This document shows, piece by piece, positions 2,884 through 45,203 of a DNA stretch of 45,203 nt; position 1 is the first letter of the stretch; each line of letters begins with the position of its first letter. The translations under genes and the position numbers were made by a program. The stretch is taken from the UHGV virus genome UHGV-0169311. The stretch is one strand, 5' to 3'. The notes beneath the pieces are model-generated. The model did not search any database. It had not been told where the DNA came from and saw only the letters and a list, made by a program, of their open reading frames with translations. This DNA comes from a virus.

Positions 2884-5793
2884 TTATGCCTGAGTACGCA
2901 GCGCTTCAAGGCGGCGCAGGTCGAAGTCGTTCAGTTCGTCGGTGTAGTCAGCAGTGATTGGCGCTGGCCATTCACCTGTGTCGAATCCGGTTGCGATATT
3001 GCGCATCGCTTTGCGGTACTCGAACATACCCAGCTCCAGTAGTTCAGCGGATGCCTCGATGATGGCGATCCAGTGGTAGTTCTCGTCTTTGTTGACGAAA
3101 ATCCAGAAGAACTGATCCAGCGCTGCGGTTTCGCAGTACATAGCCGCGCTCAGGTGATAATCACGTTCAATAATTTCCCGGTGTAGCCTGGCGCGCAGGC
3201 TTTCCTGCTTAACATTCCACATGCTGATGGTTTTCAGGTCTGCACCTATACGCACGCCATCCAGGTCGATCTCAAGGTCAGGGCGCACACGAACTTCCAA
3301 GCCCGTCTCCTCGTCAAAACCAAAGTAGCTCACCTCAACGGCTCGGCTAGGGTGGGTCAGCAGCATGCCGGCGGTCGGGTGTGCCAGAAGCGCTTTTTGA
3401 ATATTCAGCGCGGTGCTCAGCTGCTGGCGGGTGACCAGCACTTTTCCTTCCGGGTTATCGCGCCAGGCATCCAGCAGTTCGTCGGCAAATACGGCATCTG
3501 GTTTGACTGCCTTCACGGCCTGGATCATGTCTGCTTTGGTACCGGACACTTTCAGTGGTGCCGGTTTCTGTGCTTCCTGAGCCACAAGGTCAGGGTTGAT
3601 GATTGCCAACTGCTCCAGCAGCGCGTCACGGCTGCCGCTGGTTTTAACCGGCGGCGGCAGGGTGGCGTTGTACTCTTTAATGCATGCCTTCATTGCCGTC
3701 GCCGTCTGCTTCTGGTCACCATCAATACGCTGGAAGTCAGCTGGCAGCGCCATATAGTTCTGTGCCGTTTCTTCCAGGTTAGCGCCAAGCGGAACCTGCG
3801 GCGGCAGGGTGGCGTTGTACTCTTCCAGTAACACCTTGATGTCGTCGGCAGACAGCAGCGCCGGCAGGCTGGCATTGTGCTCATCGATAAAGGCGCGCAG
3901 GGTCGCGGCCGTTGTGAATGCGCCTTCAGGGATCACCGGTTCAACGCTGAATTCTGCGTCCAGTAGTTCAGGCTGCAACGCCAGCGCATGCACCAAGTTG
4001 CCCATGTCCAGCACCGCTGAGCGCTCTTTGACGATGGTTTTCTCTACGTGGCGCGCATTGAAGTACATCAGCGAAACGCGCGCATCTTTCACCTGGGTTG
4101 AGCTGATGCCGTTGGCGGCGTGGCAAACCTCGTTTGGCAGCCCTTCATAGCGGCCTGGCTCGAAATAAGCGGGATAAACAACAGCTGGTTCGTCAGATTG
4201 CGCTTCTGGCTCGGTTTGTGCTGCAACTGGTTCGGTTTGGCTTACAGAATCGCTATTTTTGGCGACAGAATCCGTATTCTGGTCTACATCGTCCTTCTGG
4301 CTGGTATCTGACTCTTCACCAGACTCCAGACTGCTTTCGCCTGGCTGTACTTCATCACCAGCTTGTTTTTCATCACTGACAGTTTCTTGAACCTGCACAT
4401 TGCTGGTGGTCTCCGTAGCCTTTTTCGTGCCATGAGTTGCTGAGTTCTGCAGCAAAGCCGTAACGTCGAATATTCCGTTGCCGACATTTTTAACCAGTTC
4501 TTGTTCGACTTTCTGCGGTTGTGCTGCCGCTTCCTCTGCGCGGCGGCGTGCTCCTTCTTCACGCACGCGTTGCAGGTTCTCTTCGTGAGTGCAGAAGGAT
4601 TTGCGCGGAGACTCCTTACCTTCAGGTTGGGGAATTTCCTGTGCTGCGGGTTCAGCCTCATGCAACGGCAATAACTCGACCGCGGAATTGAACGCGGCTG
4701 TCATGGTCTGGTTAACAAATTCCAGGTGAGCGACAGGAGTTAAATGAATATTTTCCGGTGCGATACGTACCAGGTTAAAAATAGCCGTGCGGTTAACACC
4801 CAGAACGCCTGGCTGATTGCGCAGGATGTTGCTCCATGATTTCCATGGTTCTTCTTTTTTGGTCACGATTTCTTTAGCGCGACGAAGAATGCTGCCCGGG
4901 ATCTCGAAGTGGTTGAAGTCCATAGGCAGAAGGGCACACGCAATCTCTAAATCGAGAGTGTCCAGTGTGTGGTGTGCGTCAGGTCCACGGTCAGTGACGT
5001 AACCGCCGTCGGCATTAGTGCCGGAATCAGTACGCTGCACACTACTGATGTGATTACCGGCAGCCCATTCACGCGCCAGGATGCCACGGTCAATGTAATC
5101 AGTCGCCGCCCACATTCTGGTGAAACGGAGTACCAGCGCGAGTTCGTGACGCTTGTCCTGGCTGAACACTTTGCGAATGGCATCGGTGTAGCGCCACAGG
5201 TCTTTGGTGTCGTAACCCTTCACTTCCGGGCAGTTCTCAGCAGCTAACAGCAAGTTCTGGACGTAACTGTTATCAGTGTCCATCTCCAGCGCGCCGATAG
5301 CTTCGTACTCTTCGTGGGTTACGTGGTGGCGCAGTTCGTCGGCGGTGAACTGGGAAAGCAGTTGCTTACGAAACGGCATCTGCACTACCGGGTAGAGGGT
5401 TGAGTCGTCGTCGTGTTCGTCCAGCGTGATGCCAGCGGTTTCTGGCAGCGTTGACTCAGTAGTTATGTGACTATCAACGGTCTGAGCCGTTTTCTCGTCA
5501 GAGTTTTCAGCTGTGACTTTTGGCAGCCAGGTGCGGTCATCGTTCTGCAGTTCGTAGCGTTCGCACCAGGTGTAATCCACTGCGCCTTCTTCCGGCAGGT
5601 CGTCATATACCGGGAAATCGGTGCGGATTGGTTTGGCATAATCTTTACCGCGGCCAGTTTCTTCAATTCCGGCTTCTTCCAGTGCCACATCGAGTTGGAG
5701 ATTGGCGCGCGCTACACTTTTCGCAGTGAACCAAATCACTGCATCTTTCTTGCCAGACTTCTGACTGGCTTTTATCAGATGGAAAAATTCCAT
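2884..5793 (-). CDS. recE: RecE-like exonuclease (exonuclease VIII family) with long N-terminal region
   Basis: ORF track 2884..5898 (GTG). Preferred start is the ATG at 5793 (MEFFHLIK...) preceded by AAGAGGA. C-terminus has a PD-(D/E)xK-like pattern (RPDLEIDLDGVRIGADLKT). Synteny exonuclease then annealase. Confidence 0.55.
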   Translation of the reverse strand: MEFFHLIKASQKSGKKDAVIWFTAKSVARANLQLDVALEEAGIEETGRGKDYAKPIRTDFPVYDDLPEEGAVDYTWCERYELQNDDRTWLPKVTAENSDEKTAQTVDSHITTESTLPETAGITLDEHDDDSTLYPVVQMPFRKQLLSQFTADELRHHVTHEEYEAIGALEMDTDNSYVQNLLLAAENCPEVKGYDTKDLWRYTDAIRKVFSQDKRHELALVLRFTRMWAATDYIDRGILAREWAAGNHISSVQRTDSGTNADGGYVTDRGPDAHHTLDTLDLEIACALLPMDFNHFEIPGSILRRAKEIVTKKEEPWKSWSNILRNQPGVLGVNRTAIFNLVRIAPENIHLTPVAHLEFVNQTMTAAFNSAVELLPLHEAEPAAQEIPQPEGKESPRKSFCTHEENLQRVREEGARRRAEEAAAQPQKVEQELVKNVGNGIFDVTALLQNSATHGTKKATETTSNVQVQETVSDEKQAGDEVQPGESSLESGEESDTSQKDDVDQNTDSVAKNSDSVSQTEPVAAQTEPEAQSDEPAVVYPAYFEPGRYEGLPNEVCHAANGISSTQVKDARVSLMYFNARHVEKTIVKERSAVLDMGNLVHALALQPELLDAEFSVEPVIPEGAFTTAATLRAFIDEHNASLPALLSADDIKVLLEEYNATLPPQVPLGANLEETAQNYMALPADFQRIDGDQKQTATAMKACIKEYNATLPPPVKTSGSRDALLEQLAIINPDLVAQEAQKPAPLKVSGTKADMIQAVKAVKPDAVFADELLDAWRDNPEGKVLVTRQQLSTALNIQKALLAHPTAGMLLTHPSRAVEVSYFGFDEETGLEVRVRPDLEIDLDGVRIGADLKTISMWNVKQESLRARLHREIIERDYHLSAAMYCETAALDQFFWIFVNKDENYHWIAIIEASAELLELGMFEYRKAMRNIATGFDTGEWPAPITADYTDELNDFDLRRLEALRTQA
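3651..3824. repeat. 27-bp perfect direct repeat, two copies (3651..3677 and 3798..3824) inside the recE-like ORF
   Basis: gcggcggcagggtggcgttgtactctt occurs twice 147 bp apart (in frame), giving a repeated EYNATLPP block in the protein. Confidence 0.85.
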
Positions 5794-36818: not shown

Positions 36819-39800
36819 ATGGCTACATCTACTCCGATTAGAGGCCGCAAGGGCGGCAGCTCCAGTTCACGCACCCCGACTGAACAACCAGACGATCTCC
36901 AGTCCGTAGCGAAAGCCAAAATTCTTGTTGCACTGGGAGAGGGCGAATTTGCAGGGCAGTTGACGGCGAAGGATATCTATCTCGATGGCACGCCACTGGA
37001 GAATGCAGACGGATCGCAAAACTTCAGTGGCGTGGCGTGGGAATTTCGTCCGGGGACTCAGGCACAAAAATATATTCAGGGTATCCCCGGCACAGAAAAT
37101 GAAATCAGCGTGGGCACCGAAGTGTCAAGCACCACCGGCTGGACACATACCTTTACCAACACGCAACTGTCAGCCGTTCGCCTGCGCCTCAAGTGGCCAT
37201 CGCTTTTTAAACAGGAGGATGATGGCGATCTGGTTGGCTATTCAATTAACTACGCTATTGATCTGCAGACCGATGGCGGCACCTGGCAGACGGTACTTAA
37301 TACCAGCGTAACCGGCAAGACAACTTCCGGCTACGAACGCAGCCATCGTATCGATTTACCACAGGCAGGCAGTACATGGACGGTGCGCCTGCGTAAGCTT
37401 ACGGCGGATGCCAACAGCGCGAAAATTGGCGACACGATGACGCTGCAGAGCTACACAGAGGTTATTGACGCCAAACTGCGTTATCCAAATACCGCGCTGC
37501 TGTACATCGAATTCGACTCAAGCCAGTTTAACGGCTCTATCCCGCAAATATCCTGCGAACCGCGAGGGCGTGTAATCCGCGTTCCGGATACGTATGACCC
37601 GGAGACCCGCACCTACAGCGGCACATGGACAGGGGCGTTTAAGTGGGCGTGGACGGATAATCCAGCCTGGATTTTTTACGATCTGGTGGTGAGCGACCGC
37701 TTTGGGCTGGGCAATCGCCTGACGGCGGCCAATATTGATAAATGGACGCTTTATCAGGTCGCGCAATATTGCGATCAGCCGGTTCCTGATGGTAAAGGCG
37801 GTAGCGGCACTGAGCCTCGCTATACCTGTAACGTGTACGTGCAGGAGAGGAATGACGCCTATACCGTGTTACGTGATTTTGCGGCGATATTCCGGGGCAT
37901 GACGTACTGGGGTGGCGATCAAATCGTTGCGCTGGCGGATATGCCCCGCGATGTGGATTACAGCTACACGCGTGCAAACGTGGTTAATGGGCGCTTTACC
38001 TATTCGGGCAGCACCACCAAAACCCGCTATACCACGGCACTGGTTTCCTGGTCCGATCCGGGTAATGCCTACGCGGATGCGATGGAGCCTGTATTTGAGC
38101 AGGATCTCGTTGCTCGCTTTGGCACAAATCAGCTCGAAATGACAGCCATTGGTTGTACCCGGCAGTCAGAGGCAAACCGCAAAGGACGTTGGGGTATCCT
38201 GACCAATAACAAGGATCGCATCGTGTCGTTCGATGTTGGTCTTGACGGTAAGATCCCACAGCCTGGTTATATCATCGCGGTTGCCGATGAGCTGCTTTCC
38301 GGAAAAGTGATGGGAGGGCGCATCAGCGCGGTTAACGGTCGCGTTATCACGCTTGATCGTGATTCGGCAGCCGCTCCCGGAAGCCGTCTGATGGTTAACC
38401 TTCCGTCCGGCGCATCGCAGAGCAGGACGATACAGAGCGTAAACGGGCGGGCCGTCACTGTGACAACGGCATACAGCGAAACACCTGCAGTGGAATCGGT
38501 GTGGATTGTCGAGTCTGAAGAGCTTTACGCGCAGCAATATCGCGTTATCAGCGTTACGGATAATAATGACGGAACGTATTCGATTGCTGGCGCTTTGCAC
38601 GATCCGGATAAATATGCGCGTATCGATACCGGTGCCATTATCGACCAGCGGCCAATAAGTGTAATTCCGCCCGGTAATCAGTCCCCGCCAGCTAATATCG
38701 CGATCAGTTCGTTTTCTGTCGTTCAGCAGAATATCAGCGTTGAGACCATGCGCGTCAGCTGGGACCAGGCGAAAAATGCTATCGCGTATGAGGCACAGTG
38801 GCGTCGCAATGACGGGAACTGGGTGAATGTGCCGCGCAGCTCCACCACGTCATTCGATGTTCCGGGGATTTATGCAGGACGCTACCTGGTTCGCGTGCGT
38901 GCCATCAATGCCGCCGAAATTTCATCTGGGTGGGGCTATTCAGAAGAGAAAACGTTGACGGGTAAAGTGGGAAACCCACCGAAGCCGGTTGGCTTCATCG
39001 CTTCTGAAAACGTGGTATTCGGTATCGAGCTGAACTGGGGATTCCCGGCGAATACCGAAGACACGCTGAAGACGGAAATTCAGTACAGCCTGACCGGTAG
39101 CGAAGATGATGCAATGCTGCTGGCCGATGTGCCTTATCCGCAGCGCAAATATCAGCAGATGGGTCTTAAGGCAGGGCAGATTTTCTGGTATCGCGCGCAA
39201 CTGGTCGACAGAACGGGAAACGAGTCCGGGTATACCGACTGGGTGCGAGGTCAGGCCAGCATCGATGTTTCCGATATCACCGATGTGATCCTGGAGGAGA
39301 TCAAAGACTCCGCTACGTTTAAAGATCTGATTGAGAGCGCAGTGGACAGCAATGAAAAAATTGCTGGCATGGCTGACGAAATCAAAAACCATGCCGACGA
39401 GCTGGAGCAGCAGGCGAAAGATATACAGGAAAACGCTGACGGGCTGGCGCAGGCGGCGGTAAAAATCGATGAGATTTCCGTTTCAATGGACGGTATGACA
39501 GGAGGCGTGAAGAATTCGGCAATTGCGATAATCCAGAATGGGCTGGCGCAGGTTGTCAGTCGTCGTTCCCAGACAGCAACAAACGCCGGGAACAGTGCCA
39601 GTATAGACAGAGTGGATACTACGATTGCCGATACCAGCCAGGCGGTCGCACGCGCGCTGGTCACACTGGATGCAGAAGCTGGTGGCAATATCTCTAACTC
39701 AACGGACCTGACAGAAACTCTTGCTGATTTCACCCAGGCTTCGGCAACAAAAATCAACACTCTGACTGTTAAATCAGGCGAAAACAGTGCAGCGATAAAC

Positions 39801-40274
39801 GTCAACGCACAGGCTATAGCAGATGTAAACGGTAACCTCAGCGCGATGTATAACATCAAGGTGGGGGTGTCCAGTAACGGGCAGTATTACGCTGCCGGGA
39901 TGGGTATTGGGGTTCAAAATACACCCTCCGGCATGCAGTCACAGGTAATCTTCCTGGCAGACCGTTTCGCCGTGACTACTATGGTCGGCGGGACTGTAAC
40001 ACTGCCGTTCGTTATCCAGAATGGCCAGGCCATTATCAGGGATACAGTCATTGGCGACGGGACCATAAGCAATGCAAAAATTGGCAATTACATCCAGTCG
40101 AACAATTATGTTGCCGGCTCTGTTGGCTGGAAACTGGATAAGTCCGGGACGTTTGAGAACTACGGTTCGACAGCTGGGGAGGGAGCCATGAAGCAGACCA
40201 ACCAGACAATCAGCGTCAAGGATGGCAACAACGTTCTGAGAGTGCAGGTTGGCCGATTAACGGGGGTGTTCTGA
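36819..40274 (+). CDS. J: Central tail fibre / host specificity protein J
   Basis: 1151 aa; N-terminal two thirds colinear with lambda gpJ (YTEVIDAK.RYPNTAL ...); C-terminal third divergent. Confidence 0.9.
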   Translation: MATSTPIRGRKGGSSSSRTPTEQPDDLQSVAKAKILVALGEGEFAGQLTAKDIYLDGTPLENADGSQNFSGVAWEFRPGTQAQKYIQGIPGTENEISVGTEVSSTTGWTHTFTNTQLSAVRLRLKWPSLFKQEDDGDLVGYSINYAIDLQTDGGTWQTVLNTSVTGKTTSGYERSHRIDLPQAGSTWTVRLRKLTADANSAKIGDTMTLQSYTEVIDAKLRYPNTALLYIEFDSSQFNGSIPQISCEPRGRVIRVPDTYDPETRTYSGTWTGAFKWAWTDNPAWIFYDLVVSDRFGLGNRLTAANIDKWTLYQVAQYCDQPVPDGKGGSGTEPRYTCNVYVQERNDAYTVLRDFAAIFRGMTYWGGDQIVALADMPRDVDYSYTRANVVNGRFTYSGSTTKTRYTTALVSWSDPGNAYADAMEPVFEQDLVARFGTNQLEMTAIGCTRQSEANRKGRWGILTNNKDRIVSFDVGLDGKIPQPGYIIAVADELLSGKVMGGRISAVNGRVITLDRDSAAAPGSRLMVNLPSGASQSRTIQSVNGRAVTVTTAYSETPAVESVWIVESEELYAQQYRVISVTDNNDGTYSIAGALHDPDKYARIDTGAIIDQRPISVIPPGNQSPPANIAISSFSVVQQNISVETMRVSWDQAKNAIAYEAQWRRNDGNWVNVPRSSTTSFDVPGIYAGRYLVRVRAINAAEISSGWGYSEEKTLTGKVGNPPKPVGFIASENVVFGIELNWGFPANTEDTLKTEIQYSLTGSEDDAMLLADVPYPQRKYQQMGLKAGQIFWYRAQLVDRTGNESGYTDWVRGQASIDVSDITDVILEEIKDSATFKDLIESAVDSNEKIAGMADEIKNHADELEQQAKDIQENADGLAQAAVKIDEISVSMDGMTGGVKNSAIAIIQNGLAQVVSRRSQTATNAGNSASIDRVDTTIADTSQAVARALVTLDAEAGGNISNSTDLTETLADFTQASATKINTLTVKSGENSAAINVNAQAIADVNGNLSAMYNIKVGVSSNGQYYAAGMGIGVQNTPSGMQSQVIFLADRFAVTTMVGGTVTLPFVIQNGQAIIRDTVIGDGTISNAKIGNYIQSNNYVAGSVGWKLDKSGTFENYGSTAGEGAMKQTNQTISVKDGNNVLRVQVGRLTGVF

Positions 40275-41363: not shown

Positions 41364-41597
41364 ATGAGAAAACTGATTATCTGCATGGCAGGCGCTGTCA
41401 TGCTTACAGGATGCGCTGGCGTAATTGAGAAACAGGAACCAGTTTGCAGCGGCACTGCAATCGTTGGCGGTCAGGAAACTACGGTTCAGATTTACGGTGT
41501 GCGTAAACAAAACAACCAGACGCAGTACCGGGCTGGATATCCTTTCAGCTGGCGCTGGGTAAGTGCGAATACATTTACCGAAACAACCTGCAAATAA
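41364..41597 (+). CDS. Small lipoprotein, Cor-like (superinfection exclusion candidate)
   Basis: Signal peptide with lipobox LTGC; size and post-J position as for Cor of phi80/HK022-type phages; motif QNNQTQYRAGYPFSWRWVSANTFTETTC recalled as Cor-like (uncertain). Confidence 0.45.
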   Translation: MRKLIICMAGAVMLTGCAGVIEKQEPVCSGTAIVGGQETTVQIYGVRKQNNQTQYRAGYPFSWRWVSANTFTETTCK

Positions 41598-41616
41598 CCC
41601 ACTACGCTTAAACATA

Positions 41617-41641
41617 AACCTCGCTCCGGCGGGGTTTTTTT
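41617..41641 (+). terminator. Rho-independent terminator (AACCUCGC-UCCG-GCGGGGUU plus U-tract)
   Basis: Stem with one G-U pair, followed by TTTTTTT; third occurrence of the CCTCGC/GCGGGG stem. Confidence 0.6.
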
Positions 41642-41657: not shown

Positions 41658-43061
41658 ATGCTTTATAACACCGGCACCATCGCCATTAATGGAAATACCG
41701 CCACCGGGACGGGTACAAACTGGACGGCACCGGCCAGCCAGGTCCGCGCTGGCCAGACGATTATCGTGATGTCTAACCCGGTGCAGCTGTTTCAGATTTC
41801 ATCCGTGAACAGCGCCACGTCAATGACGGTTACTCCAGCTGCTTCCCCGGCGCTGAGCGGCCAGAAGTATGGAATTCTTGTGTCGGACATTATCTCGGTC
41901 GACGGACTGGCACAGGCCATGTCTCAGCTCATCAATGAGTATGACGAGAATATCGGTGCGTGGGAAACGTTCGCCACCACCTCAGCAAACCAAAGCATCA
42001 CAGTTACCATCAACGGCACCGCCGTAACCATCCCAGGCATCGGTAAACTTGCGCAGAAAGGGAGCAATGGTGCGCTTGCAATCGCTGACGGCGGGACCGG
42101 GGCAACGAAGGCAGAAGACGCTCGCACAAACCTCGGTTTAGGCACATTCGTTACCCAGGAAGATCAGAGCATCGTCTATGGCCCGTCGCGGGATCATGCG
42201 CTTGTCGTACGAAAAGACGAATGGGGCGTCGTTGTTTCGGATAATGGTAATCCGGTACCACTCGGAACCCGTTATGGCGGAACGGGGGCAACCACCGGAG
42301 ATTACTGGGGAGCCTGTACTAACATTGGAGCCATAAGACAAAAGACAGCACGGTTTGTGCCTGGTGATACACCGACGAACATTTACTGGAAAAACAGTAC
42401 CGGCTTCATTACTGGCCAGGTTGAAGGTGGAGCCTTAGGGGCATGGATTGATATTACCTCTGCCGATGAAGCCGCCCGAATGCAGCTAATAGGTTTTTAT
42501 GACGACAATAATGGTAAACGTGGGTTCGGTTATAAGGTTTATAACCCCAACTCTCAGTCCTGGTACAATCTCGCCGTAGTGCGTGATACAAGCAACACAA
42601 CCGTAGATAGCAACGGGTTTATCAAAATCGCGTCACCAATTGTGAAGATTTACGGTGACGGACGATATGAAACTAACGATGAATCAGAAGGTGTTACGGT
42701 CACTCGTCTGGATGTAGGCCAATATCTCATTGATGGGTGTGAATCACTCAATTCAGACGCTGCCTGGGGCGGTATCGACGGAGGGTTTGAGATTCCCACA
42801 GACCGGAATAAACAACCGCTGATTTGGCTGGATTATGAGGTTAATGCCGATGGTTCTGTGTTGGTCAAAACCTATCACCGTACCCACCCTGACGCACCAG
42901 CGTTCGCCAGAAACGAACAGGACGGCGTGAGTAATGGCGATCCAGTCGACATTCCGCGCGACCAGTTTGTGTCCGTTCGTGTCGAAATGCCTGCTGATTC
43001 TTTATACAACCAAAAGCTCAGAGCCGCAGAGCAGGCCCTCATTACAGATACAGGTGAATAA
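41658..43061 (+). CDS. Tail fibre protein (constant part)
   Basis: Start MLYNTGTIAINGNTATG (track ORF from 41643); contains the fibre motif GGTGATKAEDARTNLGLG; its stop lies 3 nt before the left inverted repeat. Confidence 0.65.
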   Translation: MLYNTGTIAINGNTATGTGTNWTAPASQVRAGQTIIVMSNPVQLFQISSVNSATSMTVTPAASPALSGQKYGILVSDIISVDGLAQAMSQLINEYDENIGAWETFATTSANQSITVTINGTAVTIPGIGKLAQKGSNGALAIADGGTGATKAEDARTNLGLGTFVTQEDQSIVYGPSRDHALVVRKDEWGVVVSDNGNPVPLGTRYGGTGATTGDYWGACTNIGAIRQKTARFVPGDTPTNIYWKNSTGFITGQVEGGALGAWIDITSADEAARMQLIGFYDDNNGKRGFGYKVYNPNSQSWYNLAVVRDTSNTTVDSNGFIKIASPIVKIYGDGRYETNDESEGVTVTRLDVGQYLIDGCESLNSDAAWGGIDGGFEIPTDRNKQPLIWLDYEVNADGSVLVKTYHRTHPDAPAFARNEQDGVSNGDPVDIPRDQFVSVRVEMPADSLYNQKLRAAEQALITDTGE

Positions 43062-43063
43062 AG

Positions 43064-43089
43064 GTCGGTTTAGGAAACAGCGCTACGAG
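43064..43089. repeat. Left inverted repeat / crossover region of the invertible segment
   Basis: gtcggtttaggaaacagcgctacgag is the exact reverse complement of the right repeat; contains a gix/hix-like half site (TTTCCTAAACCGAC on the complementary strand). Confidence 0.75.
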
Positions 43090-43114
43090 GGACGTTGGAT
43101 CAGCAGCGGGAACA

Positions 43115-43771
43115 GTGGCCGCTGGCGATGATTCTCGCCTCGGTACGGTGAACGGAAAGACCGGGGGGCAACTTACAACAGCATCGATTTATACAGGTGC
43201 GAGCACGCAAAATGCAAATAACCGAGTAGGTATGCAGTCCATTGCCGCTAATTCGGTTGGTGGTCCTGTTGGCCGAACAACCTTTCAATATTTTAATGAC
43301 ACAGGATATGTGGGTGCTACGAGAGGCGGCGGTTACTTAATCCAGGATATCCGTATAGGTATAGATAAAACTGACGGTACATGGGTTACCTGGTCATTTG
43401 ATTATGGCGGAAATGCGACAGCTAACAATGGCGCCTGGGTCAATAATTCCGACCGTCGTATTAAAACAAATACCAGGCCGATTGAATCTCCGCTTGAAAA
43501 AATGAAGATGTTACGTGGCTATACATGGGAACGACTGGATAACGCACCTCCTGGCCAGGGGTTTATCGCGCAGGAGCTGATGGAAGTGATACCGACGGCT
43601 GTTTTCATCGGCGGCACAACCATCCTTGATGACGGGACACAGATTGAAGATACATTATCGGTCGATGTAGCAGGTGCGGCCGCAGCACTTCACCACGAAG
43701 CCATGCTGGCATTGATGGAAAAAGTTGAAGAACTAACCGAAAAATTCGAGGCGTTGCAGGCGGGTAGCTAA
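43115..43771 (+). CDS. Fibre-tip cassette A with C-terminal intramolecular chaperone (peptidase S74-like)
   Basis: Track ORF (GTG). Motif SDRRIKTNTRP ... MLRGYTWERLD ... GFIAQELMEVIP typical of S74 auto-cleaving chaperone domains; reading frame is open from 43058 with no ATG. Confidence 0.55.
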   Translation: MAAGDDSRLGTVNGKTGGQLTTASIYTGASTQNANNRVGMQSIAANSVGGPVGRTTFQYFNDTGYVGATRGGGYLIQDIRIGIDKTDGTWVTWSFDYGGNATANNGAWVNNSDRRIKTNTRPIESPLEKMKMLRGYTWERLDNAPPGQGFIAQELMEVIPTAVFIGGTTILDDGTQIEDTLSVDVAGAAAALHHEAMLALMEKVEELTEKFEALQAGS

Positions 43772-43775
43772 ATAA

Positions 43776-44570
43776 TTACTTGGCCAGTAAAAAATTATCT
43801 ACCTGTGTTTTAAGGCTATCAATCTTGACCATGAGAGCAAGGATCGCTTCATGGTGAAGAGCTGCCGCCACGCCGAACGTATCAACAGATTTTACATCCT
43901 CAATTTCTGAGCCATCTCGTAAGGTTGTTTTTCCATATGATTTCACTGCGTCAGGGAAAACCTTCTCAACTTCCTGGGCTATGAATCCATACCCGTGCGC
44001 AGGGGTATCGAGGCGGTCACATTCGACGCCTCGAAGCTGCTGCATTTTCATTAGCGGATCAGCGATTACCGTAACATTTTCTTTGATGCGTTCATCAGAT
44101 GCTGTTACCCAATTGCCTGTGGCAGCGCCATTTGAATGGAAAACCCAAGTGACCATCCCTTCCTGATTCGACCCTTTCAGGTTTAGTGTGACATTATCAA
44201 AATTAGCCCCGCCACCACGGGCTCCCCCGAAAGACCATTCTCCTGTATACCAGGTGCCTTTGATGAGGTTGACGTAATTACCTGTATTCGGGTTATAGCC
44301 ACTGGCCACGACCAGGCTGATGCCGTTATTCATCAATCCACCGCCACCATTATCCCCAGAATTGATGGCAAATCCGGGGTTACCGTTAATCCCTGGCTGG
44401 ACTGTAATTGGGCTCGTAATTTTCCCACCCACTTTCTGATCGACAGAATTGAGCCGTGAATCATCGCCGGCGGCGACCGTTCCCGCCGCTGCGCCAACGT
44501 CTCTCGTAGCGCTGTTTCCTAAACCGACGTTTAATAGATTGCCACGGGGCGGCCTGGCCGATAACTTCAC
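43776..44570 (-). CDS. Fibre-tip cassette B with C-terminal intramolecular chaperone (peptidase S74-like)
   Basis: Motif SDERIKENVTV ... LRGVECDRLD ... GFIAQEVEKVFP; shares the repeat-encoded VGLGNSATRD ... AAGDDSRL N-terminal block with cassette A; its GTG start lies outside the segment on the invertase side. Confidence 0.55.
   Translation of the reverse strand: MKLSARPPRGNLLNVGLGNSATRDVGAAAGTVAAGDDSRLNSVDQKVGGKITSPITVQPGINGNPGFAINSGDNGGGGLMNNGISLVVASGYNPNTGNYVNLIKGTWYTGEWSFGGARGGGANFDNVTLNLKGSNQEGMVTWVFHSNGAATGNWVTASDERIKENVTVIADPLMKMQQLRGVECDRLDTPAHGYGFIAQEVEKVFPDAVKSYGKTTLRDGSEIEDVKSVDTFGVAAALHHEAILALMVKIDSLKTQVDNFLLAK
44503..44528. repeat. Right inverted repeat / crossover region of the invertible segment
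   Basis: ctcgtagcgctgtttcctaaaccgac; coordinates +/- 1 nt. Confidence 0.7.
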
Positions 44571-44604
44571 CTGATTTTTTTGCAGAATTTATAGGGTGAA
44601 AAAT

Positions 44605-45153
44605 ATGCAAATTGGCTATGTCAGAGTGTCAACAAATGACCAAAATACAGATCTCCAGCGCCAAGCTCTCGAACGCGCAGGATGTGAACAGGTTTTTGAA
44701 GAAAAAATGAGCGGGACGGTAGCGAACCGGCCAGCGCTCAAAAAGCTTCTGCGGACTCTGAATGCGGGCGATACACTGGTGGTGTGGAAGCTGGACAGGA
44801 TAGGCCGCAACGTTCTGCATGCGCTGTTGATGTTCCAGCAGTTACAGGAAAAGGGTATCAACTTCCGCAGTATTACCGATGGCGTGGATCTCAAAACAGC
44901 CAGCGGCCGCTATAACTTTCGTAACATCCTTTCCGCAGCACAATATGAATCTGATCTTAATAGCGAACGTACCTTAGCAGGGCTGGCCGTAGCCAGGGCA
45001 AAATGGCGAGTTGGTGGTCGCAGGCCTAAGTTCACGGATGAGCAATGGCGGGAAATGGGGGAGCGGATGGCAACCGGTGAATCACGACAAAGCGTATCAA
45101 AAACGTATGGAGTAGGGCTCTCAACTCTGTATAAAAAGTTTCCAGCTAGCTGA
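44605..45153 (+). CDS. DNA invertase (serine recombinase, Gin/Pin/Hin family)
   Basis: MQIGYVRVSTNDQNTDLQRQALERAGCE matches the Gin/Pin N-terminus with the catalytic Ser in VRVSTNDQ; C-terminal HTH. Track ORF starts at an upstream GTG (44596). Confidence 0.9.
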   Translation: MQIGYVRVSTNDQNTDLQRQALERAGCEQVFEEKMSGTVANRPALKKLLRTLNAGDTLVVWKLDRIGRNVLHALLMFQQLQEKGINFRSITDGVDLKTASGRYNFRNILSAAQYESDLNSERTLAGLAVARAKWRVGGRRPKFTDEQWREMGERMATGESRQSVSKTYGVGLSTLYKKFPAS

Positions 45154-45203
45154 TAACGGGAAAGAAACAGAGAAGGGCACAAATATTGTGTACTTTAATG
45201 TGC

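Follow-up and report, generated by a model that had tools for sequence, protein, structure and literature searches.

A probable three-site Gin-family inversion switch with three alternative side tail fibre tips in a lambdoid prophage of E. coli

The locus analysed here raises the question of how a side tail fibre gene can make use of tip cassettes that are encoded directly behind it in another reading frame. It lies in the viral genome UHGV-0169311 (45,203 nucleotides, hereafter the window), which represents a phi80/HK022-like lambdoid prophage of E. coli. The fibre ORF stops in frame 0 at TAA 43059-43061, and the frame of the following cassette is frame 2, with a TGA at 43055-43057. An earlier note had recognised both the stop codon and the change of frame, held an in-frame fusion of fibre and cassette to be impossible and offered three explanations: expression from the invertase side, a frameshift or a disrupted fibre gene. 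According to our analysis, region 41658-45153 is, with a probability of about 0.9, a site-specific inversion switch of the Gin family, in which one side tail fibre gene is provided with three crossover sites and three alternative C-terminal cassettes. The Gin/Pin-type segment, gix-like sites, S74 cassettes and invertase of that note were retained, while its claim about the fusion and its three explanations were not. The fibre gene, crossover sites (s1 to s3) and cassettes (C1 to C3) are located as follows.

41658..42134, + strand: side tail fibre gene, constant N-terminal part (codons 1-159; last residues ...AEDARTNL)
42121..42146, + strand: crossover site s1, 26 bp, CTCGCACAAACC TC GGTTTAGGCACA, in frame in the fibre gene (N-L-G-L-G)
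42135..43061, + strand: cassette C1, fused to the constant part, Pfam Phage_tail_C_2 (E 6e-62), stop TAA 43059-43061
43053..43078, + strand: crossover site s2, GGTGAATAAAGG TC GGTTTAGGAAAC, direct relative to s1 and inverted relative to s3
43059..43141, no strand: left arm of the inverted repeat, s2 plus the conserved 5' end common to the S74 cassettes
43067..43771, + strand: cassette C2, silent, Peptidase_S74 PF13884 (E 4e-12), SDRRIK...GFIAQE
44525-43776, - strand: cassette C3, silent, Peptidase_S74 PF13884 (E 4e-11), SDERIK...GFIAQE
44451..44533, no strand: right arm of the inverted repeat, an 83-nt imperfect repeat
44514..44539, - strand: crossover site s3, ATCTATTAAACG TC GGTTTAGGAAAC on the - strand, inverted relative to s1 and s2

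A 15-mer scan of the window revealed a third site at 42128-42142 (AAACCTCGGTTTAGG), an exact match to the site pattern. The invertase-side site, which differs from it at one position, also matched exactly, and the middle site (s2) matched with one mismatch. By our own estimate, some 0.004 matches with at most one mismatch are expected by chance on both strands of 45 kb, and the GGTTT core is present at only three sites within the window. All three sites share the form (12 bp) TC GGTTTAGGnnnn with the central TC and intact half-sites, the core of s1 being AAACC-TC-GGTTTAGG. Like the sites of Gin, Hin, Cin and Pin, they are 26-bp imperfect palindromes with a 2-bp central core and occur in inverted orientation, and their form fits the 26-bp crossover consensus tabulated in PMC4134206. 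The gix/hix-like half sites seen earlier are borne out by the s1 core AAACCTCGGTTTA, which is identical to Mu gixL/gixR and, as in Mu, also codes for NLGL at about codon 160-170 of the fibre gene. The perfect 26-bp inverted repeats reported to bound the segment were found as the core (GTCGGTTTAGGAAACAGCGCTACGAG, 43064-43089 and 44503-44528) of the 83-nt imperfect inverted repeat, the arms of which are 88% complementary; the TAA ends two nucleotides before the perfect repeat rather than the three given previously.

Site s1 is situated in frame within the fibre gene at about codon 160 and forms the junction with the constant part, while s2 is the internal site of the larger three-site system. 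The switching unit is thus the 2.4-kb region 42128-44532, comprising three sites and three cassettes. Nucleotide homology with relatives carrying different cassettes (L002, L003, L005, L006, L007 and L010-12) ends at 42142-42144, and the constant part shows 81% amino acid identity to the N-terminus of gp22 of phage LLS. Recombination of s1 with s3 or s2 is predicted to give in-frame, full-length fusions (...TNLGLG|NSATRD...). Since the actual point of fusion is internal to the fibre gene, the out-of-frame puzzle vanishes. A natural case of the fusion that had been considered impossible is P0001, a 418-aa fibre composed of the constant part and C3, found on nine contigs (NCBI, ENA, Logan) and 94% identical over 100% of its length to the predicted protein. 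More than two sites, together with in-frame fusion of each cassette to one constant 5' part, characterize the locus as a multiple-inversion fibre switch.

C1 is the currently expressed cassette, and the TAA at 43059 is its own stop codon. Its Phage_tail_C_2 domain is full length (model positions 1-133 of 133), and the constant part with C1 shares its architecture with gp22 of LLS, a plaque-forming phage. An identical 467-aa fibre is present on 21 contigs; five of the six places shown are in the state of the window and the sixth is cut by a contig end, the remaining 15 contigs being reported solely as having similar neighbouring genes. In the L010-12 genomes C1 itself is inverted and silent beside the invertase; of the C1-like cassettes elsewhere, those of L006 and mEpX1 are inverted and that of LLS is expressed. 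The two convergent cassettes noted before as having S74 C-termini both match PF13884 above the gathering cut-off of 22 (46.6 bits for C2, 43.6 bits for C3). C2 and C3 carry the S-D-x-R-x-K cleavage motif of S74 tips (SDRRIK and SDERIK, respectively) and are tips with a predicted S74 self-cleaving intramolecular chaperone. A C2-type cassette occurs on the same constant part in P0121/L020 (88% identity, full length), and in P0001/L010-12 the constant part continues in frame into C3. C3 (96.6% nucleotide identity) was also found at the same GLG junction behind an unrelated fibre N-terminus in the IMG/VR locus L009.

The proximity of the fibre stop to the left repeat, with the cassette frame opening right afterwards, might suggest that a programmed or mutational frameshift at 43055-43061 joins the 472-aa fibre ORF to C2, or that the fibre gene is disrupted there. 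This explanation, to which we give next to no probability, is already contradicted by several observations. A -1 shift would be confined between TGA 43055-57 and TAA 43059-61, and no slippery X XXY YYZ heptamer was found in the permissive window 43058-43058/61 (GGTGAATAAAGG). The constant part with C1 is a complete protein with the domain, architecture and distribution described above. Comparison with homologues, which had been proposed as a way of detecting a once-continuous gene that was later split, showed instead that L004, L006 and L010-12 all keep the GGTGAATAA-AGGTC junction, in either orientation.

The three-site switch predicts exactly four isomers by enumeration, and three of them were retrieved from public genomes at 99.8% identity and with exact reciprocal hybrid sites. 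Isomer A is the state of the window (C1+ C2+ C3-). Isomer B, the product of s2×s3 inversion, was found in L004 (E. coli LR536431), where the 1475 bp at window positions 43059-44533 are inverted at 99.8% identity, the flanks are colinear and the site flanks are exactly swapped. Isomer C, the product of s1×s3 inversion, was found in L010-12 (GCA_049821225.1 and two other assemblies) as an inversion of 42128-44532 with 99.79% identity over 2405 nt and with two hybrid sites, one joining the left half of s1 to C3 and the other the left half of the invertase-side site to C1. Breakpoints thus map to s1 in isomer C, to s2 in isomer B and to s3 in both. Isomer D, in which C2 is expressed, was not found for the exact segment among the public genomes compared. 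In the relatives L006 and L007, three sites are arranged as + - -. A further pair of arrangements was seen in E. coli CX15/CX04 and CX07/CX21, which are a 2325-bp s1×s3-type inversion apart (CX15 and CX07 come from one collection); this inversion swaps the expressed tip from Phage_tail_C_2 to S74. With L004, L010-12 and CX15 versus CX07, the segment occurs in both orientations with breakpoints at the sites, as established by comparing genomes rather than from reads of the window's strain or one culture.

RecA-dependent homologous recombination between the inverted repeats, instead of the invertase, is a scarcely credible source of these isomers. For s2 and s3, which share 26 bp perfectly and 83 nt at 88%, it could allow a rare inversion leading to isomer B. 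However, s1 and s3 have only the 10-bp core TCGGTTTAGG in common, so isomer C did not arise in this way; the s1×s3 breakpoints in L010-12 and CX07 fall inside a gix-like site, where no more than 10-11 bp of core are shared, and an intact Gin-family invertase adjoins the segment. This gene and its candidate enhancer are located as follows.

44605..45153, + strand: Gin-family serine DNA invertase, 182 aa, Pfam Resolvase and HTH_7, a mosaic allele with the joint at about 44795
44605..44724, + strand: putative Fis-dependent recombinational enhancer, in the first ~40 codons of the invertase gene

The earlier assignment of this gene to the Gin/Pin family agrees with its Pfam matches (Resolvase, E 1e-38; HTH_7, E 2e-9) and with an end-to-end alignment to Mu Gin 3uj3 (residues 1-181 to 1-181, E 4e-62). 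The protein has the size (~180-190 aa), the catalytic serine near position 9-10 and the C-terminal HTH of small serine recombinases, and it keeps catalytic Ser9, GYVRVST, the LDRIGR arginines and the ERT motif. Switches of the Gin/Hin/Cin/Pin type depend on a cis-acting enhancer bound by Fis, which the invertase gene usually contains in its 5' part, and Kahmann et al. reportedly located that of gin there in 1985. At third codon positions, identity to Mu gin is 0.69-0.80 for codons 1-15 and 21-40 and about 0.1-0.45 for most of the remaining gene, and a Fis-like 15-mer at 44698 (GAAGAAAAAATGAGC) is homologous to GAAGATAAATTAAGC in gin. On this pattern, the window's switch may likewise depend on Fis and the putative enhancer.

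The window's invertase is nevertheless a divergent allele, strongly unlike Gin and Fin at residues ~66-135 (alpha-D/alpha-E), and has Trp134 where Gin, Fin and the alleles of mEpX1 and L006 have a conserved Gly. The canonical allele accompanies isomers B and C of the exact segment (L004, L010-12), which therefore do not prove that the window's invertase is active. The switch could be real for the family and yet frozen in this lineage, with an inactive mosaic invertase (Gly134Trp) and with C2 and C3 as silent relics unless an invertase acts in trans. In agreement with this, the W134 allele with these cassettes is in state A in the window, YPE10, L014-L017 and L019 (L018 is cut by a contig end). 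Clonally related assemblies are, however, expected to share one orientation even if the switch is active, and the invertase gene beside the clean s1×s3-type inversion of the CX strains is identical to the window's in 549/549 nt. Another prophage in the CX strains has a recombinase gene whose product might act in trans, a mode of action documented for PinQ (PMC12529663). As the catalytic residues are also kept and all three sites are intact, we regard a frozen switch as unlikely, and inversion in the window would presumably be catalysed by its own invertase.

The remaining explanation is a two-cassette switch read from the invertase side, in which GTG 44570 would supply a constant N-terminus of 14 residues to the cassette that happens to be next to it, made as a free protein of ~26 kDa. 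ORF 44570-43776 is indeed open and gives MKLSARPPRGNLLN followed by VGLGNSATRD, as noted before; PGAP annotates it as a 264-aa protein and the same gene call recurs in databases (P0012). Expression from it found no support, since no Shine-Dalgarno-like sequence precedes the GTG (AAAAAAATCAG GTG), no leftward promoter was found in a scan of 44533-44700, and the GTG lies only 34 nt from the ATG of the divergently oriented invertase gene. Such a product would also lack the ~160-residue constant domain carried by every full-length homologue. When C1 occupies the invertase-side position, as in L010/L011, the gene calls (Logan, ENA) are 323 aa long for a cassette body of ~309 codons, consistent with a start in the same flank. 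The silent S' ORF of Mu (Mup52 in the Mu record) likewise overruns the G-segment boundary, and about half of random 14-codon stretches are free of stops by our own estimate. The GTG-44570 ORF is generic read-in from the invertase-side flank, and with the third site supplying a complete alternative explanation, reading from this side is highly improbable.

In a lysogen, the invertase-side cassette might still be expressed alone, from GTG 44570 or after inversion by a trans-acting Pin-family enzyme, as a free receptor-binding tip that coats or blocks the surface receptor, a recombinase-controlled superinfection exclusion. The analogue is StfE2, a protein that arises when PinQ inverts the e14 P segment (PMC12529663). 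If this very unlikely proposal held, the conserved open frame in the flank would be functional rather than incidental.

The sites, frames, natural isomers and fusion proteins being observed, the three-site switch may operate as follows. The constant 5' part (~159 codons, ending at s1) presumably anchors the fibre to the tail, and every cassette opens with its own site, coding G-L-G in the same frame. C2 and C3, with their S74 chaperones, would need no separate assembly gene. The invertase would recombine any two inverted sites at the central TC dinucleotide. From the state of the window, s1×s3 would invert 2.4 kb and fuse C3, s2×s3 would invert 1.47 kb and merely reorder the silent cassettes, and C2 would be fused by a second inversion starting from either product. 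The silent cassettes stay untranslated from the fibre frame; the TAA of C1 and the cassette-frame TGA intervene. Four reachable isomers would give three fibre variants and presumably three receptor specificities, from which a change in host range would follow.

This is an ordinary Mu/P1-style DNA inversion. Mu G/Gin, like P1 C/Cin and e14 P/Pin, has the same order of constant fibre 5' part, gix, cassettes, gix and invertase in the same direction. The window differs from Mu in having three sites and three cassettes instead of two, cassettes that are single ORFs without a separate U/Tfa assembly gene (two S74, one Phage_tail_C_2), a lambdoid siphovirus as the virion and an invertase with the divergent alpha-D/alpha-E segment. 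The three-site, four-variant, three-C-terminus architecture is already known from other prophages. The P2-like prophage of EPEC E2348/69 was shown experimentally to have 3 inverted repeats, 4 variants and 3 C-termini (Goldberg et al. 2014, PMC4272514), and the Min system of plasmid p15B is multi-site according to the citation of Sandmeier et al. 1992 in PMC12315714. In both, as in the window, one invertase serves more than two crossover sites, and the nested large and small inversions of the EPEC module match the enumeration for the window exactly. The phage type and cassette domains differ from these systems, and the isomers of the window come from genome comparison alone. The p15B element has six sites and many more isomers.

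LLS (gp22/gp23/Fin; PQ299149; Genome Res 2025, PMC12315714), mEpX1, mEp237, phi80 pinL and HK225 belong to the same phage group and share the constant fibre N-terminus. In LLS, the annotated IR-L falls within the fibre gene, where s1 lies in the window, and a Phage_tail_C_2 cassette is paired with an S74 cassette, and the mEpX1 invertase differs from that of the window by one residue. Two sites and two cassettes make up the switch in LLS and in mEpX1; the window adds a third cassette and the internal site. Multiple inversions also shuffle the C-terminal segments of one adhesin-like protein in the R64-type shufflon (Rci). Shufflons depend on a tyrosine recombinase that acts at 19-bp sfx sites. 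An R64-type shufflon was rejected for the window, as its adjacent recombinase is a member of the serine Resolvase family and acts on gix-like sites.

For annotation and host-range prediction, the prophage would be read as having three alternative fibre tips and a receptor specificity changeable by inversion, in place of the fibre and two orphan "tail fiber domain-containing proteins" of automatic annotation. With three of four isomers of one 2.4-kb module in public assemblies, it is a clean natural example in which S74 self-chaperoning tips and a Phage_tail_C_2 tip appear as interchangeable cassettes in lambdoid phages, and it leaves the current understanding of DNA-inversion switches unchallenged.

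The right end of the window, which is a phi80/HK022-like lambdoid prophage, very probably (about nine chances in ten) carries a three-site, three-cassette DNA-inversion switch of one fibre gene. The genes and sites concerned are listed below.

Features of the right end of the window
36819-40274, J tail-tip gene
Between the J gene and the Cor-type gene, two small ORFs like HK022 gp24/25
41364-41597, Cor-type exclusion lipoprotein (77 aa), matching a gene that the YPE10 and mEpX1 annotations call phage exclusion lipoprotein Cor
41616-41637, strong terminator-like hairpin
41658-43061, fibre gene (467 aa), consisting of a constant part (codons 1-159, 41658-42134) and the expressed cassette C1 (42135-43061, +)
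42128-42142, +, repeat-core match 1, within the fibre gene; 26-bp site s1, CTCGCACAAACC-TC-GGTTTAGGCACA
43060-43074, +, repeat-core match 2; 26-bp site s2, GGTGAATAAAGG-TC-GGTTTAGGAAAC
Between the fibre gene and the invertase, two convergent S74-domain ORFs, the silent cassettes C2 (43067-43771, +) and C3 (44525-43776, -)
44518-44532, -, repeat-core match 3; 26-bp site s3, ATCTATTAAACG-TC-GGTTTAGGAAAC
44605-45153, serine invertase (182 aa)

Only 20 nt separate the terminator-like hairpin from the fibre ATG downstream, so that antiterminated late transcription may be required for fibre expression. Rfam and tRNA scans of the whole window gave no match.

In the GenBank record of phage LLS, a member of the same group as the window's prophage, IR-L is annotated roughly 500 nt into the fibre gene, and the repeat core was therefore searched across the window. 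AAACSTCGGTTTAGG has three matches when up to one mismatch is allowed. The 26-bp sites agree with the consensus of the family compiled for prophages of E. coli EC958 (PMC4134206). In Mu, gixL and gixR both have the sequence TTATCCAAAACC-TC-GGTTTACAGGAA, which specifies NLGL near codon 169 of the S gene; in the fibre gene, s1 specifies TNLGLG around codons 157-161. G-L-G is read in one common frame at all three sites.

The earlier note had described an inverted repeat beside a Gin-type invertase, enclosing two S74 cassettes out of frame with the fibre gene. The repeat was confirmed (arms 43059-43141 and 44451-44533, 83 nt, 88% complementary, with a perfect 26-nt core), the fibre ORF does stop at TAA 43059-61 in a frame different from that of the cassette, and a 264-aa ORF from GTG 44570 runs into the right-hand cassette. 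Both cassettes matched Peptidase_S74 above the gathering score, and the assignment of the invertase was borne out by end-to-end alignment to Mu Gin. The three explanations offered for the frame difference, namely expression from the invertase side, a frameshift fusion and a disrupted fibre gene, were all rejected, as s1 within the fibre gene allows in-frame fusions. Since s2 is an internal site, nothing need be read across it.

C1 is a complete expressed module that terminates with the TAA codon at 43059 and has a Phage_tail_C_2 domain (E 6e-62). Its fibre has the architecture of gp22 of the plaque-forming phage LLS, and the identical 467-aa protein was found on 21 contigs, which together with the completeness of C1 speaks against a disrupted gene. 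This TAA and a cassette-frame TGA keep the silent C2 untranslated. A frameshift fusion of fibre and cassette would have only a very narrow permissive window lacking a slippery sequence. GTG 44570 has neither a Shine-Dalgarno sequence nor a predicted leftward promoter, and its product would be devoid of the constant domain found in every full-length homologue; the promoter/terminator scan gave no leftward element from the invertase side, with counts not above those of shuffles. The ORF extension from this GTG appears generic: silent C1 adjoining the invertase in two relatives (L010/L011) was called as 323 aa, exceeding the cassette body, and the silent S' ORF of Mu (Mup52) also extends past the G-segment boundary. 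Silent cassettes (43115-43771 and 43776-44570 in the window; also in loci L001, L004 and L013) are automatically annotated as stand-alone "tail fiber domain-containing proteins", with the start placed either at a GTG within the cassette (43115), which is not conserved in C3, or at a GTG in the invertase-side flank.

Fusion of the constant part (41658-42134) with C3, read as the reverse complement of 43776-44525, gives an uninterrupted ORF of 408 codons, and its fusion with C2 (43067-43771) one of 393 codons. The predicted junction peptide of the fusion fibres is ...TNLGLGNSATRDVG(A/S)AAG, and S74 cleavage is predicted after ...NN|SDRRIK and ...TA|SDERIK. Enumeration of inversions between oppositely oriented sites yields exactly four isomers: A, the state of the window; B, after s2×s3 inversion; C, after s1×s3 inversion, with C3 expressed; and D, with C2 expressed. 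Three of the four were seen in public genomes for the window's own segment.

Isomer B was found in E. coli LR536431 (L004), which carries window 43059-44533 in reverse orientation (99.8% identity) with colinear sequence on either side; s2 and s3 have exactly swapped their left and right parts. For isomer C, a protein search with the predicted fusion of constant part and C3 returned an E. coli protein of 418 aa (P0001; 94% identity, 100% coverage), encoded on contigs from three sources (GCA_049821225.1, one Logan assembly and one ENA assembly). On these contigs the gene order is fusion gene, C2(-), C1(-), invertase, and window 42128-44532 is inverted (99.79% over 2405 nt) with the hybrid sites AAACC-TC-GGTTTAGGAAACAGC... 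and AAACG-TC-GGTTTAGGCACATTC... Because s1 and s3 have only TCGGTTTAGG in common, this exchange was site-specific and not homologous. A fusion of the constant part to a C2-type cassette is present in locus L020 (P0121, 88% identical, full length). In an IMG/VR contig (L009), a C3 cassette (96.6% nt identity) follows an unrelated fibre N-terminus, the two being fused at the same GLG junction. Against relatives with other cassettes (L002, L003, L005, L006, L007), homology of the constant part stops exactly at 42142-42144. Three sites in a + - - arrangement are present in L006 and L007, and in L006 a Phage_tail_C_2 cassette is silent and adjoins the invertase. The exact junction of s1-left with C2/C3-right had 0 matches in the genome_contigs scan; two loci in IMG/VR carry this pattern and were included in the analysis.

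The invertase gene of the window is a mosaic with a joint near 44795. Over its first ~64 codons it has ~99% nucleotide identity to the canonical Fin-type allele carried by other prophages, and nucleotide homology to L004, L007 and L010 stops at 44795. Residues ~66-135 (alpha-D/alpha-E) diverge strongly from Gin/Fin, and residue 134 (codon 45004-45006) is Trp, in contrast to Gly in the Gin, Fin, mEpX1 and L006 alleles. Loci pairing this allele with these cassettes are in the window's state, so a switch frozen in the window's lineage was considered possible. A synthetic junction of inverted C1 and window-type invertase found no place with at least 80% query coverage in complete E. coli genomes; isomers C or D with the exact cassettes and this allele are thus absent from the genomes searched. 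The same search brought to light E. coli strains CX15/CX04 and CX07/CX21, which argue against freezing: their invertase gene is identical to the window's (549/549 nt), and a clean inversion of 2325 bp, with s1- and s3-type sites at its ends, distinguishes CX15/CX04 from CX07/CX21. This inversion switches the expressed tip from Phage_tail_C_2 to S74. The four strains belong to one collection, with equal chromosome length in CX15 and CX07. The invertase of another prophage may have acted in trans, as documented for PinQ (PMC12529663). In the inverted isomer, the hybrid s1 site is AAACC-TT-GGTTTAGG (L022 2191-2205 in CX07; same position in L024, CX21), with a TT central dinucleotide where every other site seen, including both parental-type sites of CX15, has TC. 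The mismatched core may lock this isomer or record conversion at the crossover. Codons 1-40 of the invertase gene show raised synonymous-site conservation relative to Mu gin, and the homologous position holds a Fis-like 15-mer; these features suggest that the 5' part of the gene contains a putative Fis-dependent enhancer.

The switch shares its mechanism with Mu G/Gin, P1 C/Cin and e14 P/Pin, and the apparent out-of-frame anomaly is explained. The multi-site elaboration matches the Min system of p15B and the P2-like prophage of EPEC E2348/69, for which sequencing and PCR demonstrated three inverted repeats with four coexisting variants and three alternative C-termini (PMC4272514). A two-cassette version was noted in LLS (PMC12315714). 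Specific to the window are the third cassette, the combination of Phage_tail_C_2 with S74 tips, also present in LLS but unremarked there, and the absence of separate assembly genes, as the tips chaperone their own folding. No paper combining the phrase "intramolecular chaperone" with invertible fibre cassettes was found, a weak result given incomplete literature coverage.

It appears that the switch moves as a cassette, with s1 as one boundary and a point inside the invertase gene as the other. The stretch 42128-44795, which covers the module and the initial 190 nt of the invertase gene, shows 99-99.8% identity to L010-L012 and L004; the neighbouring J-to-fibre region is just ~90% identical between prophages sharing the module, which otherwise differ and are integrated at different loci (yciI/tonB versus yecD/aspS side). 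The window itself looks like an entire prophage trimmed at its attachment sites: it opens with a 412-aa ORF (5-1243), 50 nt remain past the invertase stop (45154-45203), yciI-tonB follow the invertase in relatives, and mEpX1 has a phi80-like attP ~120 nt downstream of its invertase.

A decayed relative is present in E. coli MB06022 (L005, 2029-4694), with two site-like sequences that point the same way and lack an inverted partner, inserted Hemerythrin and DinI genes, and a shorter recombinase ORF (174 aa) lacking the IGYVRVST start. In mEpX1 (L003), an opposite-strand "hypothetical protein" is annotated over an inverted site at 4008 and an unannotated inverted Phage_tail_C_2-like cassette (3289-3533; 77% nt identity to window 42747-42991), for which reason the invertible segment seemingly went unrecognised in the record.
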